From positions 1 to 64,000 of IMG/VR virus record IMGVR_UViG_2636415703_000001: DNA of 64,000 nucleotides; one strand, 5' to 3'. The stretch comes from a virus (lineage: Duplodnaviria > Caudoviricetes). The notes below the pieces were generated by a model, which did no database searches, had not been told where the DNA came from, and saw only the letters and a program-made list of their open reading frames with translations. Shown piece after piece: positions 5,561 to 63,263 of the stretch; the first letter of the stretch is position 1, and every line of letters starts with the position of its first letter. The translations under genes were made by a program, and so were the position numbers.

Positions 5561-5947
5561 ATTTTTCGGCACTAAATGGGCGGGTGCTACCTTTGAGAGC
5601 AGATAAATCGAAAAATTTTAAAATTCCTTACGTGAATGTTGATGATCGGTTGACGGCCTTAATATATGATCAATTGGCATTCAAGTTGATTGCTAACGGT
5701 AACTATTATCAGTAGGCACTATCGGTCATAGCCCATTGCACCTGACAGTAGTTACACAATCCTGAACACACAGCTTCGTTAATAAGCGTGTACAGCAGAA
5801 ATATCTGACAGATGCACAATGCAGACTAATCTTATTATTGCAATTCTAAGGAGAGTTGATTTTACATGCCTAATGTTTCTGTCTATATTCGCCTGCATTA
5901 AGTCCAGAGAGACTGATACCGCTCATTAATATTTTTTGGATACGATT

Positions 5948-7027
5948 ATGCCTAACTTCAGCGATGTAGAATTTGAGAAGCGCTATAAACATTTTCTACA
6001 GGTACAAACCGAGTGGCTGGCTCTCATCACGGACAACCTGATTTTTATTGATAAAAACGCCCTGGGTGAAGAATGCCGCCCGATCGGTTTTATCACTGAC
6101 AAGAAGACCTTTCAGCGCGCTGAACATCTACTGGCCGACTGGCAAAGTTTTGCTGACCTGGCGGAACAGAAACGCCAGGAGCGTTCCATCGCCATTACCA
6201 CGAACCTTTATCTGCCAGTGCCGACCCTGATCGTGGATCCGAAGCACGTTACTATTAACCGCTTCCGTGCCACGGCCACCGCGAACCATACCCGCGAAGA
6301 TATCCTGAAGCGCTACGAGAAGCAGATCGGCAAGCTGCGTAAAGTTCCGTTCGCAGCCGGTGCAATCATGTCACTGGAAGATGAAAAGAAAGCCTTTGAA
6401 GAGGCCGCGCCTGGCGCAATGTACCGCGCCCGGACCAGCAACTACTCTGATATTCAGGTGACTGCGCGCTATACCGACGATAAGAAAGACGAGGGTGAAT
6501 CCTTCCGTTACGGCGCACACGGCATGCTGATCTATGGCGAGAACCTTAATAAAGAGCGCGATATTAAGCTGAATGTAAACAGCAATGGCGGTTACACGTC
6601 CTCTTATGATGTTATCTCACCGGTTGCATGTTCAGTACTGCCGAATGCCAAGCTGTACACGATGGAAGACGTGGAATACAGCAAAAATCTGGCCGCGCAG
6701 CGTTCATCAGTAGCGTACACCGTGAACACGCGCCGGTCTCAGTTTGAGACCAGGGCAAAAGCGAAGATTGCAAAGGCAAAGGACTCGCAGGAAGCCCGTC
6801 TGTTCAAGGCCGAAATTGATGAAAACCGCGATCTGCTGGAAAAACTGGAGGCATACGACTGGGCGCTCCTGGAGAAGAAAGTGGCCGCTGGAGATACAGA
6901 GCAGCTGACCATGCCAGAGATCCGCAAGCGCTATGGCGGTGAAGAACCACGCGCCGGTAAGAATATGCGCAACATGTACAGCCTGCTGCGCGAGTTAGAG
7001 AGTAACCTGAAAAATCAGGGCAAATAA
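5948..7027 (+). CDS. c1: C1-like primary repressor
   Basis: Between pacB and lox, as in P1. Segments LYLPVPTLI and SYDVISPVACSVLPNAKLYTMEDVE match recalled P1 C1. Confidence 0.8.
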   Translation: MPNFSDVEFEKRYKHFLQVQTEWLALITDNLIFIDKNALGEECRPIGFITDKKTFQRAEHLLADWQSFADLAEQKRQERSIAITTNLYLPVPTLIVDPKHVTINRFRATATANHTREDILKRYEKQIGKLRKVPFAAGAIMSLEDEKKAFEEAAPGAMYRARTSNYSDIQVTARYTDDKKDEGESFRYGAHGMLIYGENLNKERDIKLNVNSNGGYTSSYDVISPVACSVLPNAKLYTMEDVEYSKNLAAQRSSVAYTVNTRRSQFETRAKAKIAKAKDSQEARLFKAEIDENRDLLEKLEAYDWALLEKKVAAGDTEQLTMPEIRKRYGGEEPRAGKNMRNMYSLLRELESNLKNQGK

Positions 7028-9993: not shown

Positions 9994-10124
9994 GCAGTGA
10001 TCACATTAATGATCACTGACTATTCAAACGCGCTGAAAAATCACCGTTTAAGTGTCATTTTTTTAAAATTGGTGTTACTTTTGAGTCTCGCTAAGAGCTT
10101 GAATTCAACCACTGGATAATATAA

Positions 10125-11249
10125 ATGACTAACAAGAAAGCTGTTTTAGTAGCTGTAGATGCGGGTTCGGGCAACGTTACGATTGCCTATGAGGAAGATG
10201 GTCAATGGCTATCCCTTATCACTCCGTCACTGGTCCATGAAGGCCACCAGCAATCCTATTCAAATAATGCGTCATCCACCTGGTTCACTGAAAACGCCAA
10301 CGGGAATGAAGCAGCCTATACCGTCGTGAAAAAGGGCTTTACTGACCTGTACGATACCTGTGACCCGGATTACCAGATTTCCGCTCCACATCGTGTGCTG
10401 GTTCACGAATGCCTTAAGCGTGCGGGTATCGTGGATTGCGACGTTATCCTGGGTGAAACCCTGCCTATCGGTCAGTTCTACAGCGGCACTGGTGTTATCA
10501 ATCAGGACCGTATTAACCGCAAAGTTGAGAGCCTGAAAAAGCCTGTGCGCAACTACAGCGGCGACGTTGCGCCAGCGCGCATCAGACACGTTGAAGTTTT
10601 CCCGGAGGCTGTACCGGCGATTCTGGCCGCACAATCTGAGTTTCCGGAGCTGGAACAGGCGCAAACCATTCTGGTAATCGACATTGGCCGGTTTACTTGT
10701 GATATCGCCATTGTTGATGAAGAGCTGGTGCCGATTAAAAAGGCCAGCTTTGAGCACGGCATTCAGAAGATGATCAACCGCGTTCTGGTGCTGCTGCAGG
10801 AGTTCGAAAAAACGTCTGGCCGCTCATTCAACGCGGAAGAGATCCCGGTAGGTATCGTGGACGACATTATCCGTCAGGGCTACATCGGTTCCCGTATGGA
10901 AGCCGCCAAAGCCAAGCGTATCGACGTGACCAGCGTTATCGATCAGGCAGCTGGTGAGCTGGCGTCTGAAATCTGGCGTGACGTGCGCTCTCTGCTGCGC
11001 AACGTAGTCGCTCTGGATGCTGTACTGGTTGTGGGTGGCGGCGCTAACTATCTGGCAGGCCGTCAGGCTGGCCTGACCGACCACACAGCTGATTGGCACG
11101 ATGTTGTTATCATCCCGGCTAACCCGGAGCTTTCCATTGCGCGTGGCGTGTTTATGGCGCTTATGTCGTCAGAAGACGAGCTGCGCGACTCGATCAAAGA
11201 GACTGCAACTGTTCGCGATATTAAAAGCCGCGCCAGCGATAAAGGTTAA
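10125..11249 (+). CDS. parM: ParM/StbA actin-like partition ATPase
   Basis: Actin-fold motifs VDAGSGNV, VFPEAVPA, IDIGRFTCD, VVGGGA, IARG. Confidence 0.88.
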   Translation: MTNKKAVLVAVDAGSGNVTIAYEEDGQWLSLITPSLVHEGHQQSYSNNASSTWFTENANGNEAAYTVVKKGFTDLYDTCDPDYQISAPHRVLVHECLKRAGIVDCDVILGETLPIGQFYSGTGVINQDRINRKVESLKKPVRNYSGDVAPARIRHVEVFPEAVPAILAAQSEFPELEQAQTILVIDIGRFTCDIAIVDEELVPIKKASFEHGIQKMINRVLVLLQEFEKTSGRSFNAEEIPVGIVDDIIRQGYIGSRMEAAKAKRIDVTSVIDQAAGELASEIWRDVRSLLRNVVALDAVLVVGGGANYLAGRQAGLTDHTADWHDVVIIPANPELSIARGVFMALMSSEDELRDSIKETATVRDIKSRASDKG

Positions 11250-13705: not shown

Positions 13706-14290
13706 TTAAATAAGCCTCCAGTCTGTTGCCAATAAGTCGATAGAAGCAGGAGCCCAGTCGGAAATCGTTTGCTTTTCGGTATCAATGAGCAAAAGCTGGG
13801 GCATCTGAGTTACGGCCACATCCTGGCTGCAATCAAAGTACCGGGCCGGTACGCCGTACATGTCAGATCCGTTAAGTGCTGCGCGTGTCAGCCCTCTGGT
13901 GAGATGTAGATAAACACCCTTCCCCCATGCAGCCCGCGCTACCTTGCAGCCCTCTGACAGCCATAATTGCGCCACGGCCAGCGGCGCATGTTCCTGTCTG
14001 AAGTTCAGTTCGCCTGCATCGATCATCGCCTCATTGCGAAGAATCAGGTCATGCAGCTTAATCAGTGCGGCGCATGCGGCGTAGTTCAGTGTTTTCCCGT
14101 AACCGGTCATTGTCAGGCCGCTTTTGCTAATAATGGCGGCGTAACCTGCATTTGTGGTCTTGGATGTGTCAGTAATGGTGTAACCCAGGCGGGAAATGGT
14201 ATCCAGCAGCGCCATGTAATCGCCTGCATAGTCGGCTTCTGCGTCTGCAATCAGGCTGATAGTCGCGTTTAACTGTTGAGCGGTCATCAT
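13706..14290 (-). CDS. DUF2829/Tad2-like domain protein (TciA-like)
   Basis: C-terminal GCKVARAAWGKG...WAPASIDLLATDW signature. Confidence 0.75.
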   Translation of the reverse strand: MMTAQQLNATISLIADAEADYAGDYMALLDTISRLGYTITDTSKTTNAGYAAIISKSGLTMTGYGKTLNYAACAALIKLHDLILRNEAMIDAGELNFRQEHAPLAVAQLWLSEGCKVARAAWGKGVYLHLTRGLTRAALNGSDMYGVPARYFDCSQDVAVTQMPQLLLIDTEKQTISDWAPASIDLLATDWRLI

Positions 14291-18239: not shown

Positions 18240-18539
18240 TTACAGTAGTTTCAGCGCCGTTACGGCTATGGCGGCGACAACGACAATCATCAGTACATTC
18301 AGCAGTACAGACGGCACTTTAATTTCGCCGGTCTCATACTCTGCCTGCGTCATCCTGCCCAGGTAGCTGTGTGAGATCAGCACTGCGTTTTCGTCAAAGC
18401 TCAGCGTAGCCCGAACGTTCTCCAGCGCCTGGCGAGATATCTGACGTGTGGCCAGCTGCACGACTCCGGATCGCATCTTCCCGTTGTCGCCCATGTAGCA
18501 GACCGTATGGTAGTGGTATGGCTTACCCTGCCCCATCAA
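18240..18539 (-). CDS. Phage protein with C-terminal TM helix
   Basis: SYLGRMT motif, hydrophobic C-terminus; overlaps upstream stop. Confidence 0.6.
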   Translation of the reverse strand: MMGQGKPYHYHTVCYMGDNGKMRSGVVQLATRQISRQALENVRATLSFDENAVLISHSYLGRMTQAEYETGEIKVPSVLLNVLMIVVVAAIAVTALKLL

Positions 18540-19054
18540 CTGATAACTACCCAGTCGCTGACGCGCATATCGTTAATGCTCAGATCGTGTATCTCAACGC
18601 CGCCGTCCGGTCGGGTCAGCATCAGCACATCACAGCCTTCATGCTCCTGCTCCAGCGACACAAAGTATCCCGCCTCCCACGCTTCCCGGCGCATCAGCAA
18701 TTCTGGATCCTCTTTCATTTTCAGCAAGGCGCGGTCATAGCTGCACGTAATGGCACCGATTCCAATTTTGTTCAAACCTTCAATCTGTGCCGTAGTCATG
18801 CGTCCGCGTCCCTCTGTTAATGATTTTCTCAAGATGTAACTGATCCCCTTCACGCCGCCGAAATAGTTCAGCTGGCGGTTACTCATGCCGCTGCGCGACA
18901 TAAGCTCCTGCTTCGGTACTCTGAAAATGCCGACGTCCATAGCCATGTCGGCAAAAACCGAAAGCCCCCGGCCCAAGCCGTCACGCGTCTTTTTACGGCG
19001 CGCATACTGCTCAAAGGTCGGGCATCCGGTAAAAAACTGCGCGTCAAAAAGCAC
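18536..19054 (-). CDS. Protein with C-terminal DUF2829/Tad2-like domain (possible internal start 18799)
   Basis: SYDRALLKMK...MRREAW...NDMRVSDWVV. Confidence 0.6.
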   Translation of the reverse strand: MLFDAQFFTGCPTFEQYARRKKTRDGLGRGLSVFADMAMDVGIFRVPKQELMSRSGMSNRQLNYFGGVKGISYILRKSLTEGRGRMTTAQIEGLNKIGIGAITCSYDRALLKMKEDPELLMRREAWEAGYFVSLEQEHEGCDVLMLTRPDGGVEIHDLSINDMRVSDWVVIS

Positions 19055-29639: not shown

Positions 29640-29906
29640 TTATTTTTTATTCGGCTTTTTTGCGATGCTGAATAAATCAGACGCATCAGACTTAGCCGTT
29701 TTTATATCGGGAAGTACCACGCAGTACGGACACGGCCCGACCTCTGTATAACTTCTTTTTGCCATGCTCAGCGCCTGAACTAACGAGTAACAGCTACCGA
29801 TAAAAGCCCGGTATTGTTTATCCGGCAGCTGCTTACAGTCAGTCCGGTTCAGTAGTAACCCGCTGCTTCCGCGGTCGCTGACGTAGAACTTTATGGCCTT
29901 ACTCAT
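29640..29906 (-). CDS. Small Cys-motif protein, paralog 1
   Basis: FYVS..C..LP...R.FIG...CPYC. Confidence 0.6.
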   Translation of the reverse strand: MSKAIKFYVSDRGSSGLLLNRTDCKQLPDKQYRAFIGSCYSLVQALSMAKRSYTEVGPCPYCVVLPDIKTAKSDASDLFSIAKKPNKK

Positions 29907-30498: not shown

Positions 30499-30960
30499 CT
30501 AATTGGGCCACTCATATAAAAAGTGTTGCACCGCAACGACCTCCAGGCCTCTCTTGATTTTCACAACCTGCTGAGGGCCGGTCGGCTCAAGTTCGATCGC
30601 CTGTTTAATCAATGGTGCTGCAGGCTTAACAGCCGCCGCTTTGACCGGCTGGCATGCCTGCGTCGCCATCATTTTCTTTGCTTTGGCCGCAGGCCTCTTT
30701 ATGGGCTTCTGGCTGAGATTCAGCAGCCGCTCTTTGCAGGAGTCTGTTTCTTCAGGATTCTGGTTTTTCAAACATACTGGGCATCGCTCGGAATTACTAT
30801 GATGCGTAAGTGCCACCGTCATCGCCTGCTTTGGGGTATAGAGCGTGCCGATAAATATCCGGCTATCAGGCGTTTTCGGCAGAATTTTACAGCCTTCACG
30901 ATGCAGCAGAGTACCGCTTTCATGATGAAAGCTGAGGTAGTATTTCTTTGCTTCTAACAT
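30499..30960 (-). CDS. Small Cys-motif protein, paralog 2
   Basis: YYLS..LHREGC..LP...RIFIG...CPVC. Confidence 0.6.
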   Translation of the reverse strand: MLEAKKYYLSFHHESGTLLHREGCKILPKTPDSRIFIGTLYTPKQAMTVALTHHSNSERCPVCLKNQNPEETDSCKERLLNLSQKPIKRPAAKAKKMMATQACQPVKAAAVKPAAPLIKQAIELEPTGPQQVVKIKRGLEVVAVQHFLYEWPN

Positions 30961-31169
30961 GCTAAATCCTTCGAGCAGTATTGAATCTGATTAAACAGAA
31001 ACAAGGTAATGATATTGACTCTTATTATCAACCTTTTAATTTGTGGGTATACAGCCTGTATAATTCAGCCTGGCACTGAATTATACGCGCACAAAGTTAA
31101 TTAAAATAAATTAACAGCCGTAGCCTGAATCGGCCCTGATATCTCAGCCATAAAGTAAATCATGACGCT

Positions 31170-31427
31170 TCAGTGTAGCAGCGAAATGATTTTCCAATCA
31201 GTTGAAATAATATCGTCAGGAGTCGGATCATAAAAAGACAGCCCGCCTGACTCGCTCATGACAATAAATTGTCTTTGACTGTCAGCGTCTGTTTCAGTGA
31301 ATACGTGAACTGGTGTATCGCCCCACTTGGTACGACGACAGATAATACTGTCCGTCTGGCTTATGGCTGTCATGGCGTAGTTAAAACCTGTTTCCGCCTG
31401 GGATGGCGTGTCGGGGATATCAGACAT
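31170..31427 (-). CDS. Stand-alone DUF2829/Tad2-like protein
   Basis: GFNYAM...RRTKW...YDPTPDDIISTDWKI; GGGAG SD. Confidence 0.7.
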   Translation of the reverse strand: MSDIPDTPSQAETGFNYAMTAISQTDSIICRRTKWGDTPVHVFTETDADSQRQFIVMSESGGLSFYDPTPDDIISTDWKIISLLH

Positions 31428-31479
31428 GAAATGCTCCCTGTGCTTTGAGACGCGTCACAACAAGAGGTTCCAATCTCCG

Positions 31480-31560
31480 GGTGGTGACGTTGACAGGGTT
31501 GGAACTACCGGCGCACAAGAAAACCGGCCTACCCGAAGGTAGCCCCGCCAACGCCACCAT
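31480..31560 (-). ncRNA. c4: C4-type antisense RNA with a1/b1 and a2/b2 targets
   Basis: Cloverleaf GGTGGCGTTGGCGGGG-CTACC TTCG GGTAG-GCCGG TTTTCTTGTGCG CCGGT-AGTTCCAA-CCCTGTCAACGTCACC; complementary TTGGAAC loops near 31467 and 31632. Confidence 0.8.
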
Positions 31561-31763
31561 AGATACGCCTGGTTTTTTCCAGACGTGGTAGCGCCGAAGG
31601 CACTGAGTGCCTGTTCTTATGCTTCAGCAGGGTTCCAATCCTGACCGCTATACTCACGCGGCGCGGACACTATAGCCACCATGTTGATAAATTCAATATG
31701 TCTTATGTGAAATTATCCACTGGTCATTAGATCCAGACGCGGGTGAAGATTAACTAACCTCAT

Positions 31764-33198: not shown

Positions 33199-34116
33199 AT
33201 GTCTGAAATCACAAGGATTCCAAACGTGTCTATAGTAGCTAATAGCACCGATCCCGGCAACACTTTTCCCGCAATTCGCTCAAATAACGAGCACAGATCT
33301 GCCCGAATTACAGGCTTTGATCTTACTCACATTATCGAGCTATCACCCCTCCCGAAGTCAGTAAGCCGCGTCTTAAAATTTGCCTGCAATCTGGCCGGTT
33401 CCACGTCCGAGTTCATCATCATCAAATCGCTCCGGAATCTGGCTGAAGAAGCCGGTTGCAGTATCTCAACCGTTCAGCGAGCCTACCGTGCTGCCGTTAA
33501 GCTGGGGATCCTCAGCTATGAAGAGCAGCGCGATGAGAAAAATCACAGCGTCAGCAAACCCAGTAAGTACACATTTACCAGTAAAGCCCTGTCCTTTGTC
33601 CAGGCGAGTCTGGATGCTTTGAAAGAGGCAAATCTGAAACCGTCAGGCCGTCAGACTATTGTCCGGAGGGTTATCGCTAACGCCTTCTTTAAAAACGATT
33701 TTATCCACAATACCCCTGGTCAGAATGAACAGGCTACCCCTGGTCAAACTGACCAACAAGAATTAAGAGATCACTCCAGTAAAAGAGAAATACAAAATGG
33801 GGAGCCATTAAATTCTGAGGTTAAAAAGTCAGCAGAGCCACAACTGGTACCGGTGAAAAAAATCGGGCTCTACCAGAACACACAAAAGCAGCTGGCAGCA
33901 GCATCGTCAGCAGCACAAAATGAGCGAAGCGCAGAAGAGTATCAGCGCAAAGGCGGCGTACTGCATGAAGCCTACCAAGCGCTTAAGTCCACGTTCAGGG
34001 CAAAGCCTGCTGGTGGCAGGAAGCCGAAAGGCCGCCGCTACTCTGACCCATTGAGCGGCAGCTTTTCGGCGGGTTTGGATTACTCAGTCATACCTGAAGG
34101 CTTTCGAGGCTGTTAA
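33199..34116 (+). CDS. repL: Lytic replication initiator RepL
   Basis: NLAGSTSEF, wHTH LAEEAGCSISTVQRA, C-terminal IPEGFRG match recalled P1 RepL. Confidence 0.88.
   Translation: MSEITRIPNVSIVANSTDPGNTFPAIRSNNEHRSARITGFDLTHIIELSPLPKSVSRVLKFACNLAGSTSEFIIIKSLRNLAEEAGCSISTVQRAYRAAVKLGILSYEEQRDEKNHSVSKPSKYTFTSKALSFVQASLDALKEANLKPSGRQTIVRRVIANAFFKNDFIHNTPGQNEQATPGQTDQQELRDHSSKREIQNGEPLNSEVKKSAEPQLVPVKKIGLYQNTQKQLAAASSAAQNERSAEEYQRKGGVLHEAYQALKSTFRAKPAGGRKPKGRRYSDPLSGSFSAGLDYSVIPEGFRGC
33701..33756. other. Putative oriL inside repL
   Basis: Perfect DnaA box TTATCCACA (33701) followed by TACCCCTGGTCA direct repeats at 33711 and 33735. Confidence 0.6.
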
Positions 34117-61008: not shown

Positions 61009-61106
61009 TGCGGTGTGATAGAGGCAAGAAAAGATTTTAAAATCTAAGGAAAAAATTTATTTTTTGATGTACCTTTTCCGCATGTAATTGACCACTGGTA
61101 ATCCTC

Positions 61107-61597: not shown

Positions 61598-63263
61598 ATT
61601 TTTTACTATTAGTAGTAAGAGGCACTATAGTGAAACTATCCACGGAAAACCCAAACACTCTTTCAAAACTAGATTTAACCCACACCTCAACTTTTTTCTT
61701 GCCGCTATTATTAGAAAGCCACTTCGCATCGCATACAAAATCTCCCTTCCCAAAAGCCCATTGATTGCAAAGGTCATAAACAGTAACTGATTGATAAAAC
61801 TTCGTAGCAGTATCCTCAAGTACTTGAACATCTATACCTGGCAAGGGTGCTGGCACTATTTCTTGATGTCTATTTTCTATGAAAACAGCTTGATGCTTGT
61901 AATAAAGATGTGTAGCTCGGAGATTGCCTTGCGCCGGATTAACAAACATGCTCGGCCAGCAGAAAATCTCAGGACTTTTCAGTTTATCCATTTGAAAACT
62001 TAAAAACCTACCAAATATCAAGCGGACGGGTAAGTTTGCATCACTATAACTAAAATCATCATTCTCTTTAATTAACCGCTGAAGGTTTTTGCTATTTTTA
62101 CACCAGCCATTTATCTCCCCTAAGTATTTCCTAGGGCTAATATAACCTAGTTCATCACAAAGTGCAGTGGAAATAGTCCAATACTCTTCAGAAGAATGTA
62201 ACTTTATATAAGATTTAAACTGCTCATACTTAGTACTTACTGTAATACATAGCTTTTCAAATCTAATTGCAGGGTTAATATCGTGTGTAAATCTTTCAGG
62301 TTGGGAAAGATCAAAAATTAAACCCTCTGCAGGATTGATAGCAATATCGATCAGTAGTAAATAGAGCGCCACCAGTGGGCTTTCAATGCTGTCAGGCCTT
62401 TTCCCGTCATTTACAACATCAAGGAAAAACCTAAATGCATTATAGTACTTTCCACTAAGCATATTTGCACTGTCAAAAAAAGCCCAATCACAAGCACTTC
62501 TTTTAAAAAAAGTCCTGATGTAAAGCATTTGATTAAATCTTGCCTGACCTTCATACAAATCAACAAGGTTTAAGGTAGGAAAATATTCATTGTTGCCTTC
62601 TGCATCTTTATGTCCCTCTCCATCAAAGTATTTATTTATATTTTCACAAAAAACCTTAGCGGTAGGTATAAGATAGTTTTCTTCACCAAATGTTGTCTCA
62701 AGCAATAATAAGTGATGAAAAAACACTTTCGACATAACATCTATAGCTGATGTAAATCCTTCACTCTTTTTTAATTCGTCAATTCCACTCGATTCTTTTA
62801 ATATCGCATGGTAATTATATATACTCACGTAAGAATCCAATAAAGAACATATTACTGGAACTTCTTGCTCGGTTATTGTGTAATCATGACTTTTGGCATA
62901 AGCAACAATTGGTTTGAATTTCCCACTTAACTTCGAAAATTCGTCAAAATCTTCTTTATTACAAATAGCCAGAGCTGGTAAGCTTAAACTAAAAATTATA
63001 CCTGACAAAGATCCTATATACTGCCACCAATGCAGGTTTTCATGTAGTGCAGTTGATCCTGCAAAAACAATCTCTCCTTTAGTTAAAAGGTGCAAGTCCT
63101 CTTCTGCATCATTTTTTCTCAGCACCTCCTGGACATCTGGATTTACACGTAATGTATAATATGTAAAAGTATAAACCCCCCTTATATAACCGCCAGGCTC
63201 TAATGGACCAAATTTATCTTGAAGACTCATATCAACAATTAGTTTTTCTATTTTACCTTTCAT
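61596..63263 (-). CDS. AT-rich HExxH (metallopeptidase-like) protein
   Basis: TALHENLHWWQ and downstream LYEGQARF. Confidence 0.65.
   Translation of the reverse strand: MKGKIEKLIVDMSLQDKFGPLEPGGYIRGVYTFTYYTLRVNPDVQEVLRKNDAEEDLHLLTKGEIVFAGSTALHENLHWWQYIGSLSGIIFSLSLPALAICNKEDFDEFSKLSGKFKPIVAYAKSHDYTITEQEVPVICSLLDSYVSIYNYHAILKESSGIDELKKSEGFTSAIDVMSKVFFHHLLLLETTFGEENYLIPTAKVFCENINKYFDGEGHKDAEGNNEYFPTLNLVDLYEGQARFNQMLYIRTFFKRSACDWAFFDSANMLSGKYYNAFRFFLDVVNDGKRPDSIESPLVALYLLLIDIAINPAEGLIFDLSQPERFTHDINPAIRFEKLCITVSTKYEQFKSYIKLHSSEEYWTISTALCDELGYISPRKYLGEINGWCKNSKNLQRLIKENDDFSYSDANLPVRLIFGRFLSFQMDKLKSPEIFCWPSMFVNPAQGNLRATHLYYKHQAVFIENRHQEIVPAPLPGIDVQVLEDTATKFYQSVTVYDLCNQWAFGKGDFVCDAKWLSNNSGKKKVEVWVKSSFERVFGFSVDSFTIVPLTTNSKK

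Follow-up and report, generated by a model that had tools for sequence, protein, structure and literature searches.

A C4 antisense RNA switch over a small DUF2829 (Tad2-like) gene in a distant P1-like phage-plasmid

The antisense regulator C4 is a textbook case, known as a guard of antirepressor genes; in phage P1 it is excised by RNase P. Proteins of the DUF2829 family are currently annotated wholesale as "Thoeris anti-defense Tad2". The two meet in the DNA analysed here, the first 64,000 nucleotides (the window) of the 94,142-bp virus record IMGVR_UViG_2636415703_000001, which CheckV rates as complete. On its minus strand, a C4 RNA lies upstream of a gene for an 85-residue DUF2829 protein, and related loci keep this arrangement, with covariation. 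A literature search returned no paper joining C4 antisense RNA with DUF2829, and no relevant one joining Tad2 with an antirepressor.

In the immunity-I (immI) region of P1 and P7, the elements run P51a/b, a1, b1, c4, a2, b2, icd and ant1/ant2. Phage D6 has, in order, an isrK-like element, C4, icd and orf82, the product of which begins with a Rha domain. Salmonella Gifsy-1 has a locus made of IsrK, orf45 and the antirepressor gene anrP. On the side of Tad2, the Tad2 preprint names W25, N26, W73 and D79, and also D67, H71, S76 and T78, as contacts of glycocyclic ADP-ribose (gcADPR) in the SPO1 protein. In SPO1 Tad2, N26 makes polar contacts to the phosphates and hydroxyls of the ligand. A W21A/N22A mutant of HgmTad2 is reported to bind 1''-2' gcADPR much more weakly. 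Sponges of the Tad2 class are homotetramers with two ligand pockets.

The C4 switch and its target sites

The elements of the switch in the window are as follows.

31669..31696, minus strand: sigma-70-type promoter TTGAAT-16-TATAGT, 9/12 consensus matches
31628..31643, minus strand: a1 hairpin, stem CAGG/CCTG, with the loop ATTGGAAC at 31632-31639, complementary to a'
31614..31622, minus strand: b1, GCAUAAGAA, 9 pairs with b', one of them G-U
31598..31612, minus strand: hairpin AGGCAC-UCA-GUGCCU, counterpart of the isrK terminator hairpin, without a U tract
31477..31564, minus strand: C4 antisense RNA (Rfam RF01695, fold)
31513-31522, minus strand: b' loop of C4, UUUCUUGUGC
31499-31505, minus strand: a' junction of C4, GUUCCAA
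31464..31477, minus strand: a2 hairpin, with the loop ATTGGAAC at 31467-31474
31434..31443, minus strand: b2, GCACAGGGAG, 10 pairs with b', three of them G-U
31170..31427, minus strand: 85-residue open reading frame (ORF) for a DUF2829/Tad2-fold protein, the only predicted C4 target

The promoter, a1 and b1, C4 with its a' and b', a2, and b2 over the Shine-Dalgarno (SD) sequence thus all lie, on the minus strand, where the original prediction had read them. The SD sequence GGAG (31434-31437) falls inside b2, 6 nt ahead of the ATG at 31427. The C4 call is strong: RF01695 scored 85.2 bits (gathering threshold 45) and aligned from position 1 to position 87 of its 87, and it is the sole C4 that Rfam finds in the whole 94-kb record. 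None of 200 shuffled sequences folded as well (z = -4.5), and both the minimum-free-energy and the centroid structures take the Rfam consensus shape, with a long closing stem, two hairpins, an exposed b' loop and an exposed a' junction. The promoter is the only promoter-like site upstream of C4 on the minus strand and aligns with the P1c4 (P51b) region of P1 (alignment A7).

The covariance-model check that had been proposed held for C4 and failed for the leader. The c4-a1b1 model (RF03163) reached 25.7 bits, under its gathering threshold of 46.7 (local E 8e-4), with the a1 hairpin aligned, and the isrK model on the a1/b1 region was not significant (14.7 bits, E 3.9); in D6, phiP27 and Shae_phiSM the isrK model is above gathering at the a1/b1 position. 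The 10-mer GATTGGAACC has two copies in the 64 kb, which flank C4, against a shuffle expectation of 0.12. Within the 94-kb record, a b-target comes no more than 60 nt after an a-target only at a1/b1, at a2/b2 and in C4's own complement; with no other such pair, the 85-residue ORF is the only predicted target of C4.

Duplex energies added nothing. For b' and a' with the downstream targets, shuffled sequences did as well in 197/1000 and 401/1000 cases, and for the loops with the leader targets in 512/1000 and 119/1000. The support for the switch is therefore its position and covariation, and energy was dropped. Contigs of 199 nt (31437-31636) and 223 nt (31413-31636) were found in two sequencing runs; they were not counted, since they are contigs from one study whose RNA label is a guess. 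No RNA run covering the C4 stretch was listed.

Twenty loci form the clade of the window: the window itself, five plasmid loci and 14 IMG/VR loci, with ORFs 45-92% identical to that of the window. C4 lies 49 nt upstream of the ORF start in all 20 and scores above the gathering threshold in 19/19 of the others. The -35 hexamer is identical in 20/20 and the -10 hexamer in 18/20. The a' junction is identical throughout; the a1 loop is unchanged in 19/20 loci, with one substitution in the remaining one, and the a2 loop ATTGGAAC is kept in 17/20, with one substitution in the other three and its TTGGAAC core unchanged in 18/20. Promoter and C4 are 94-99% conserved across these loci while the ORF diverges.

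Two types of b' loop occur, 15 loci having UUUUCUUGUGC and 5 having UCUCCUCGUAC, and b2 matches the loop in 20/20: GCACA(G/A)GGAG accompanies the first type and GUACGAGGAG the second. From one type to the other, both partners are exchanged in two of the b'-b2 pairs (C-G to U-A, A-U to G-C), and in three more a G-U pair gives way to a Watson-Crick pair (G-C or A-U). The clade holds one such type switch only, and b' and b2 are 70 nt apart; their linkage would account for joint inheritance, not for complementary changes. With C4 at 49 nt and a matching b2 in every locus, the switch is wired to the 85-residue gene. The upstream b1 matches the b' type in 18/20 loci. The exceptions, the IMG/VR loci L018 and L019, are natural recombinants, which combine the promoter, a1 and b1 of b-type 2 with the C4 and b2 of type 1, so that the upstream decoy no longer fits C4 while the downstream target still does. 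The two natural b' types amount to ready-made compensatory mutants. In an element-by-element alignment of the switch architecture, the a' and/or b' sequences are particular to each of P1, D6, phiP27, Shae_phiSM and the window, and each has a1/a2 and b1/b2 that fit them.

In two further loci (L016 and L017), C4 type and first codons come from one lineage and the protein body from another. The first ~8 codons are alike even across unrelated cargos: MSDIPDTP in the window (31427-31400, minus strand), MATIPTPT in Icd, MATVPTSP or MATIPTLT in Rha and MTAIPAET in ORF6N proteins (L043, L041, L049, L068, L095, L071). Judging from these codons, the cassette seems to come with a start and N-terminal codons of its own, the cargo being swapped behind them.

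A Tad2-like protein with a relative in phage D6

The original prediction had called the ORF DUF2829/Tad2-like, and family and structure searches agree. Pfam assigns PF11195 (Tad2-like, DUF2829) at 28.9 bits (cut-off 25; E 1.7e-6), with positions 4-73 of the 73-position profile aligned, and 8/8 close homologues carry the same family and the NCBI name 'Thoeris anti-defense Tad2 family protein'. An AlphaFold model (predicted local distance difference test, pLDDT, 82) has a helix, a five-stranded sheet and a short helix before the last strand. The best Foldseek rows are all Tad2 (E 3e-3 to 4e-2, template-modelling (TM) scores 0.48-0.65), the top chains having probability 1.00 and TM 0.55-0.65. VIA-align places ModTad2 (Z 6.2, root-mean-square deviation 3.2, 67 residues) and AcrIIA7/HgmTad2 (Z 6.0) first, about 1.2 Z above the next, unrelated rows. 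With the 20-member profile A2, the only matches in the PDB were four Tad2 entries and AcrIIA7 (E 0.01-0.87), the best of them (E 0.01-0.07) all Tad2 entries; the single sequence matched no PDB chain in phmmer at E <= 10. The nearest Atlas clusters are Tad2-like (score 0.90). By family and predicted fold the protein is Tad2-like, though only just, with moderate support for the fold.

A representative search gave 19 matches, six of them to long proteins with many short stretches, and these six were left out of A2 as likely composition matches. Longer, fused homologues were absent among 38 candidates, which is weak evidence. Several of the more distant members, with 30-40% identity to the ORF, come from contigs of 86-98 kb; alignment A5, used for their loci, matched nothing in the genome, viral and metagenome contig sets. 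Two further DUF2829 domains are found in the same phage, each C-terminal in a longer ORF: one in a 194-residue ORF at 13706-14290 (minus strand; 40.7 bits), the other in a 172-residue ORF at 18536-19054 (minus strand; 20.3 bits, below the cut-off), between pmgM-like and pmgR-like genes. The 172-residue ORF is the closest relative of the 85-residue protein in the record (hidden Markov model (HMM) E 9e-9).

These results bear on the role first proposed, a true Tad2-type sponge of gcADPR, histidine-ADP-ribose (His-ADPR) or a cyclic nucleotide, whose synthesis C4 would limit to the time just after entry and shut off in the lysogen. The Pfam call above cut-off, the NCBI name of the close homologues and the first-ranked profile, Foldseek, VIA-align and Atlas matches all point that way. 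Among the SPO1 contacts named in the preprint, the HMM alignment keeps W25 (W35 here) and D79 (D72), the equivalents of which are invariant or nearly so across the clade, and changes two conservatively, W73 to Y66 (Tyr/Phe in the clade) and S76 to T69. Against a sponge, N26 is replaced by Gly (G36) and D67, H71 and T78 by Ser, Ser and Asp (S60, S64, D71), and the matches are weak throughout, in structure as in sequence, with E about 3e-3, Z about 6 and identities of 15-17%. The gene at 13706-14290 in the same phage also fits the Pfam family better. The clade has invariant residues of its own, C30, R31, R32 and H41.

A further point against a sponge is that, in the phage collection, the ORF's closest relative beyond its own clade is a domain of an antirepressor candidate, closer than any solved Tad2. 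When the ORF was searched with tblastn against 50,697 phage records (2.3 Gb), only phage D6 matched, in two records of the same phage (E 5e-3). The matched region comprises residues 241-310 of the 313-residue orf82, annotated as "putative anti-repressor". Pairwise BLASTP gives E 2e-9 at 27% identity, hhalign a probability of 66% with E 5.7e-5, and the A2 HMM E 0.004 among 2513 frames; the motifs CRRxxW and (T/A)DW are common to both. From these alignments, the homology between the 85-residue protein and the last ~70 residues of orf82 is real, if distant. The C-terminal domain of orf82 occurs in 123 plasmid records from E. coli, Salmonella and Shigella.

What C4 guards elsewhere was surveyed in IMG/VR through the C4 junction GCCGGTAGTNNCAACCC, which occurs in at least 118 stretches, 80 of them listed. 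Four of the 80 were short of downstream DNA, 17 had no ORF under the rule applied (an SD sequence, >= 35 codons, start 30-220 nt after the motif), and 59 had a first ORF. Ten representatives were scanned with Pfam, and the others were grouped by near-identical first 14 residues and length. The first ORFs, counted among the matches listed, are as follows.

Icd-like: 22/59, by BLASTP to P1 or D6 Icd
Rha: 12/59, 3 by Pfam and 9 of phiP27 type (the prototype holds Rha)
Derepression-like: 11/59, 1 scanned, 26.1 bits against 27, just below the cut-off
Bro-N: 6/59, 3 by Pfam
DUF2829 type of the window: 4/59, HMM E <= 1e-37, all on ~90-kb contigs
ORF6N: 2/59, both by Pfam
KilA-N: 1/59, by Pfam
Unclear: 1/59

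Icd or antirepressor-type proteins are thus the cargo in 54/59 of the loci among the matches listed, which again speaks against a sponge. In 4/22 of the Icd loci among the matches listed, the next ORF is a weak HMM match, as D6 orf82 is. At two loci, L003 (CP060164, 4027-4167) and L012 (phiP27 L16), ORFs called 'ash family protein' or Phage_ASH overlie the C4 RNA; this call looks like a translation of the RNA gene. Taken together, family, fold, W25 and D79 speak for the proposed immune-signal sponge, and the Gly at N26, the D6 homology and the cargo survey speak against it. We regard it as possible and somewhat doubtful, and not as the best-supported role; the pulse on entry and the silence in the lysogen that were proposed with it would follow by analogy with P1.

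The statement that DUF2829 stands here instead of icd-ant was right as to sequence family. No alignment to P1 or D6 Icd was obtained at E <= 100, and the record has no homologue of P1 Ant. It does not hold in another respect, since the nearest outside relative is itself the C-terminus of a putative antirepressor that D6 carries behind C4 and icd. On the 85-residue ORF, Pfam finds PF11195 only and no ANT/KilAC, Rha, Bro-N or KilA-N domain; what can be claimed is accordingly that the protein may work like an antirepressor, not that it is a member of a known antirepressor family.

The gene is also named 'MW1434 family type I TA system toxin' by PGAP in three plasmid records, which raises the question of a type I toxin-antitoxin (TA) or Icd-like module. 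The protein would then harm the host, for example by a division block, and C4 would keep it untranslated and so help the plasmid prophage to persist. The first C4 target in P1, icd, is indeed annotated as a cell-division inhibitor, and a small ORF silenced at translation by an RNA follows, in formal terms, the logic of a type I system. The MW1434 name, however, goes back to a list of predicted toxins in which, in the available part of PMC6266405, the gene itself comes without a test. The protein has no match in NCBIfam release 20, its NCBI name is now that of the Tad2 family, and it lacks similarity to Icd. It is predicted to be soluble, with one helix and a beta-sheet, rather than a membrane peptide. 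C4 and its target lie on the same transcript, a poor fit to post-segregational killing. A toxin module therefore seems to us quite improbable.

The C1-like repressor and the setting of the cassette

Compared with the six-frame ORFs of P1, the ORFs of the window describe a distant P1-like genome with core proteins 40-55% identical, among them cre, c1-like, pacA/B, lpa, darB, prt, pro, repL-like, and tail and head genes; icd, ant1, ant and kilA of P1 have no match in the record at E <= 1e-5. The closest relatives in public databases are plasmids of 87-95 kb classed as non-mobilizable, of which five carry the label Pantoea and one the label Acinetobacter. The available part of PMC10999674, on P1 in Pantoea agglomerans, holds nothing on C4 or immunity. 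TIR_2, ThsB_TIR and SMODS domains are absent from the record, which is uninformative on the host.

The C1-like gene and the candidate operator sites are the following.

5936..7027, plus strand: C1-like repressor gene, match to P1 c1 at E 5e-11
31707..31724, minus strand: ACCAGTGGATAATTTCAC, a candidate operator of C1 type, next to the -35 hexamer on its upstream side
10108-10125, plus strand: ACCAGTGGATAATTTCAC-like site
61082-61099, 61630-61647, 81861-81878 and 84107-84124, minus strand: ACCAGTGGATAATTTCAC-like sites

The C1-like protein matches NCBIfam phage_rep_C1 at 58 bits, far under that model's cut-off of 500 bits. With up to 4 mismatches, the ACCAGTGGATAATTTCAC-like motif has 6 sites in the 94-kb record, the one beside the promoter included, against 0-1 in five shuffles, and we take it as a candidate operator of the C1-like repressor. 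The stretch at 31707..31724 is nearly invariant in the six-sequence alignment A1, and in P1 the C1 operator Oc4 is annotated upstream of c4. ANT (PF03374), Rha, Bro-N and KilA-N domains were not found by Pfam in the 94-kb record. Against three records, the 85-residue protein and C1 of the window are each 45% identical and the portal protein 94%; both are fast-evolving against a conserved background.

The genes prt and pro, adjacent in P1, are separated here by a 2.3-kb minus-strand insert, of which the C4 cassette forms the upstream end. The adjoining stretch varies among relatives. In the plasmids NZ_CP134741 and NZ_CP141613, C4 and the 85-residue gene are the sole content between the portal gene and pro, with 64 and 54 nt, respectively, from the portal gene stop to the ORF stop. 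The 85-residue gene is thus the single output of the switch there, and two further ORFs of the window, 153 residues (30499-30960, minus strand) and 88 residues (29640-29906, minus strand), are extra, variable cargo. These two occupy the variable stretch from the portal gene to the C4 cassette, are absent in both plasmids and look like paralogues with a common C...CPxC pattern; neither has a Pfam family, and the 88-residue ORF matches phrog_4298 (unknown function). In the 209-nt gap between the 85- and 153-residue ORFs lies a 10-bp inverted repeat, TATAATTCAG-N7-CTGAATTATA (31059-31085, minus strand), with TATAAT inside; it could be an operator or promoter of the downstream cargo. Directly after pro, at 33199-34116 (plus strand), is a RepL-like gene, 37% identical to P1 RepL. 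The pieces of the P1 block c4-icd-ant-kilA-repL are thus split here, on opposite strands, around pro.

This setting raises the question of whether the cassette is a leftover, an old c4-icd-ant operon cut down until the ORF was left as a remnant or as neutral cargo, involved in neither immunity nor defence. Its odd place between prt and pro, the variable neighbourhood and the recombination of modules in L018/L019 (b1 against C4 and b2) and L016/L017 (C4 against protein type) would suit such a history. The ORF, however, is under purifying selection (median ratio of nonsynonymous to synonymous substitution rates, dN/dS, 0.30, maximum 0.49, in 40 pairs with dS > 0.1 from 10 distinct 85-codon sequences). 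It is intact in 15/15 loci read, and tblastn matches cover the other 5. Moreover, b' and b2 have changed together, and promoter and C4 stayed conserved while the ORF diverged. We consider a leftover very improbable.

Proposed circuit and comparison with known systems

Based on these findings, we propose that the locus forms a functioning immunity-I switch of the P1 type, carried by a distantly P1-like phage-plasmid of Pantoea type, with the 85-residue protein as a minimal, antirepressor-like immI effector. We put this reading first, tentatively and at slightly less than even confidence. One transcript from the sigma-70-type promoter would carry the decoys a1 and b1, then C4, and then the targets a2 and b2 and the 85-residue gene. 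C4 would be cut out of this transcript. Its a' junction and b' loop could then pair with a2 and b2, and an occupied b2 would block translation of the gene, presumably also in trans, because b2 contains the SD sequence. In some relatives, the 85-residue gene is the switch's only output. The protein, a stand-alone DUF2829 domain, may target the C1-like repressor, or the circuit around it, as a minimal derepression or antirepressor-like factor. The position of the gene, the D6 homology and the lack of another antirepressor in the record favour such an effector of immunity.

Several observations weigh against this proposal. The antirepressor role of D6 orf82 is a "putative" annotation only, the profile-level link to it is modest (HMM E 0.004; hhalign 66%), and Pfam makes no PF11195 call on orf82 at E <= 0.1. 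The 85-residue protein itself passes the Pfam Tad2-like model and keeps the W25 and D79 equivalents. Its closest paralogue, at 18536-19054 (E 9e-9), stands in a non-immunity context, so the DUF2829 domain is not tied to immunity regions. In the closest group, C1 is 92-93% identical and the 85-residue protein 69-71%, which does not look like tight co-evolution of the two. The protein does track C1 in rank order, but so does lineage, and the three divergence classes follow lineage (pro 79-82% against 93-95%). The cargo survey, finally, is biased: it used one a' junction pattern, its loci were not de-replicated, its groups rest partly on N-termini and it lacks a first ORF for 21 of the 80 listed loci.

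A bolder variant of the effector idea is that a Tad2-fold domain has become a new kind of lysis-lysogeny effector, either a repressor-binding antirepressor on a nucleotide-sponge fold or a sensor of host immune nucleotides coupled to derepression. C4 would then control a link between bacterial immune signalling and prophage induction, with the Pantoea protein, standing alone, and the D6 protein, fused to Rha, as two states of one device. We consider this unlikely, though less so than the toxin module.

The distinction matters for annotation and for phage biology. Should the protein be an antirepressor, then part of the "Tad2" annotations in databases are wrong and a new minimal class of antirepressors exists. 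If it is a sponge, an anti-defence gene has come under a prophage immunity RNA, and a prophage already in the cell could switch off the counter-defence of a relative that enters.

As to Gifsy-1 IsrK, the isrK model overlaps the a1/b1 region of the window only weakly (14.7 bits, not significant), and the isrK-type terminator here lacks a U tract, so that a separate short RNA is not expected. The Tad2 sponges (SPO1 gp34.65, ModTad2, HgmTad2 = AcrIIA7 and SptTad2) share with the 85-residue protein the Pfam family, the predicted fold and the W25 and D79 equivalents. They differ in sequence (15-17% identity), in N26 (Gly here) and W73 (Tyr/Phe here), in the clade's own invariant residues and in that the 85-residue protein is placed under an immunity RNA. 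D6 and D6-like phage-plasmids also carry C4 above the gathering threshold, and the last ~70 residues of orf82 align over 95% of the 85-residue protein. Unlike D6, the window has neither icd nor the Rha domain and linker, so that the domain stands alone, at 27% identity, and orf82 has no aromatic residue at the W73-equivalent position.

In P1 and P7 immI, the first ORF is icd, to which ant (PF03374) is translationally coupled, whereas here the first ORF is not Icd, no Ant comes after it, and some relatives of the window have one ORF as the entire output. The location differs too, since the cassette sits on the opposite strand between prt and pro and not beside kilA-repL, and its a' and b' sequences are unlike those of P1. 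What the locus shares with P1 and P7 is the order of the elements, a b2 over the ribosome-binding site of the first ORF, loops and both target sets that change together, and a C1-like repressor with a candidate operator upstream.

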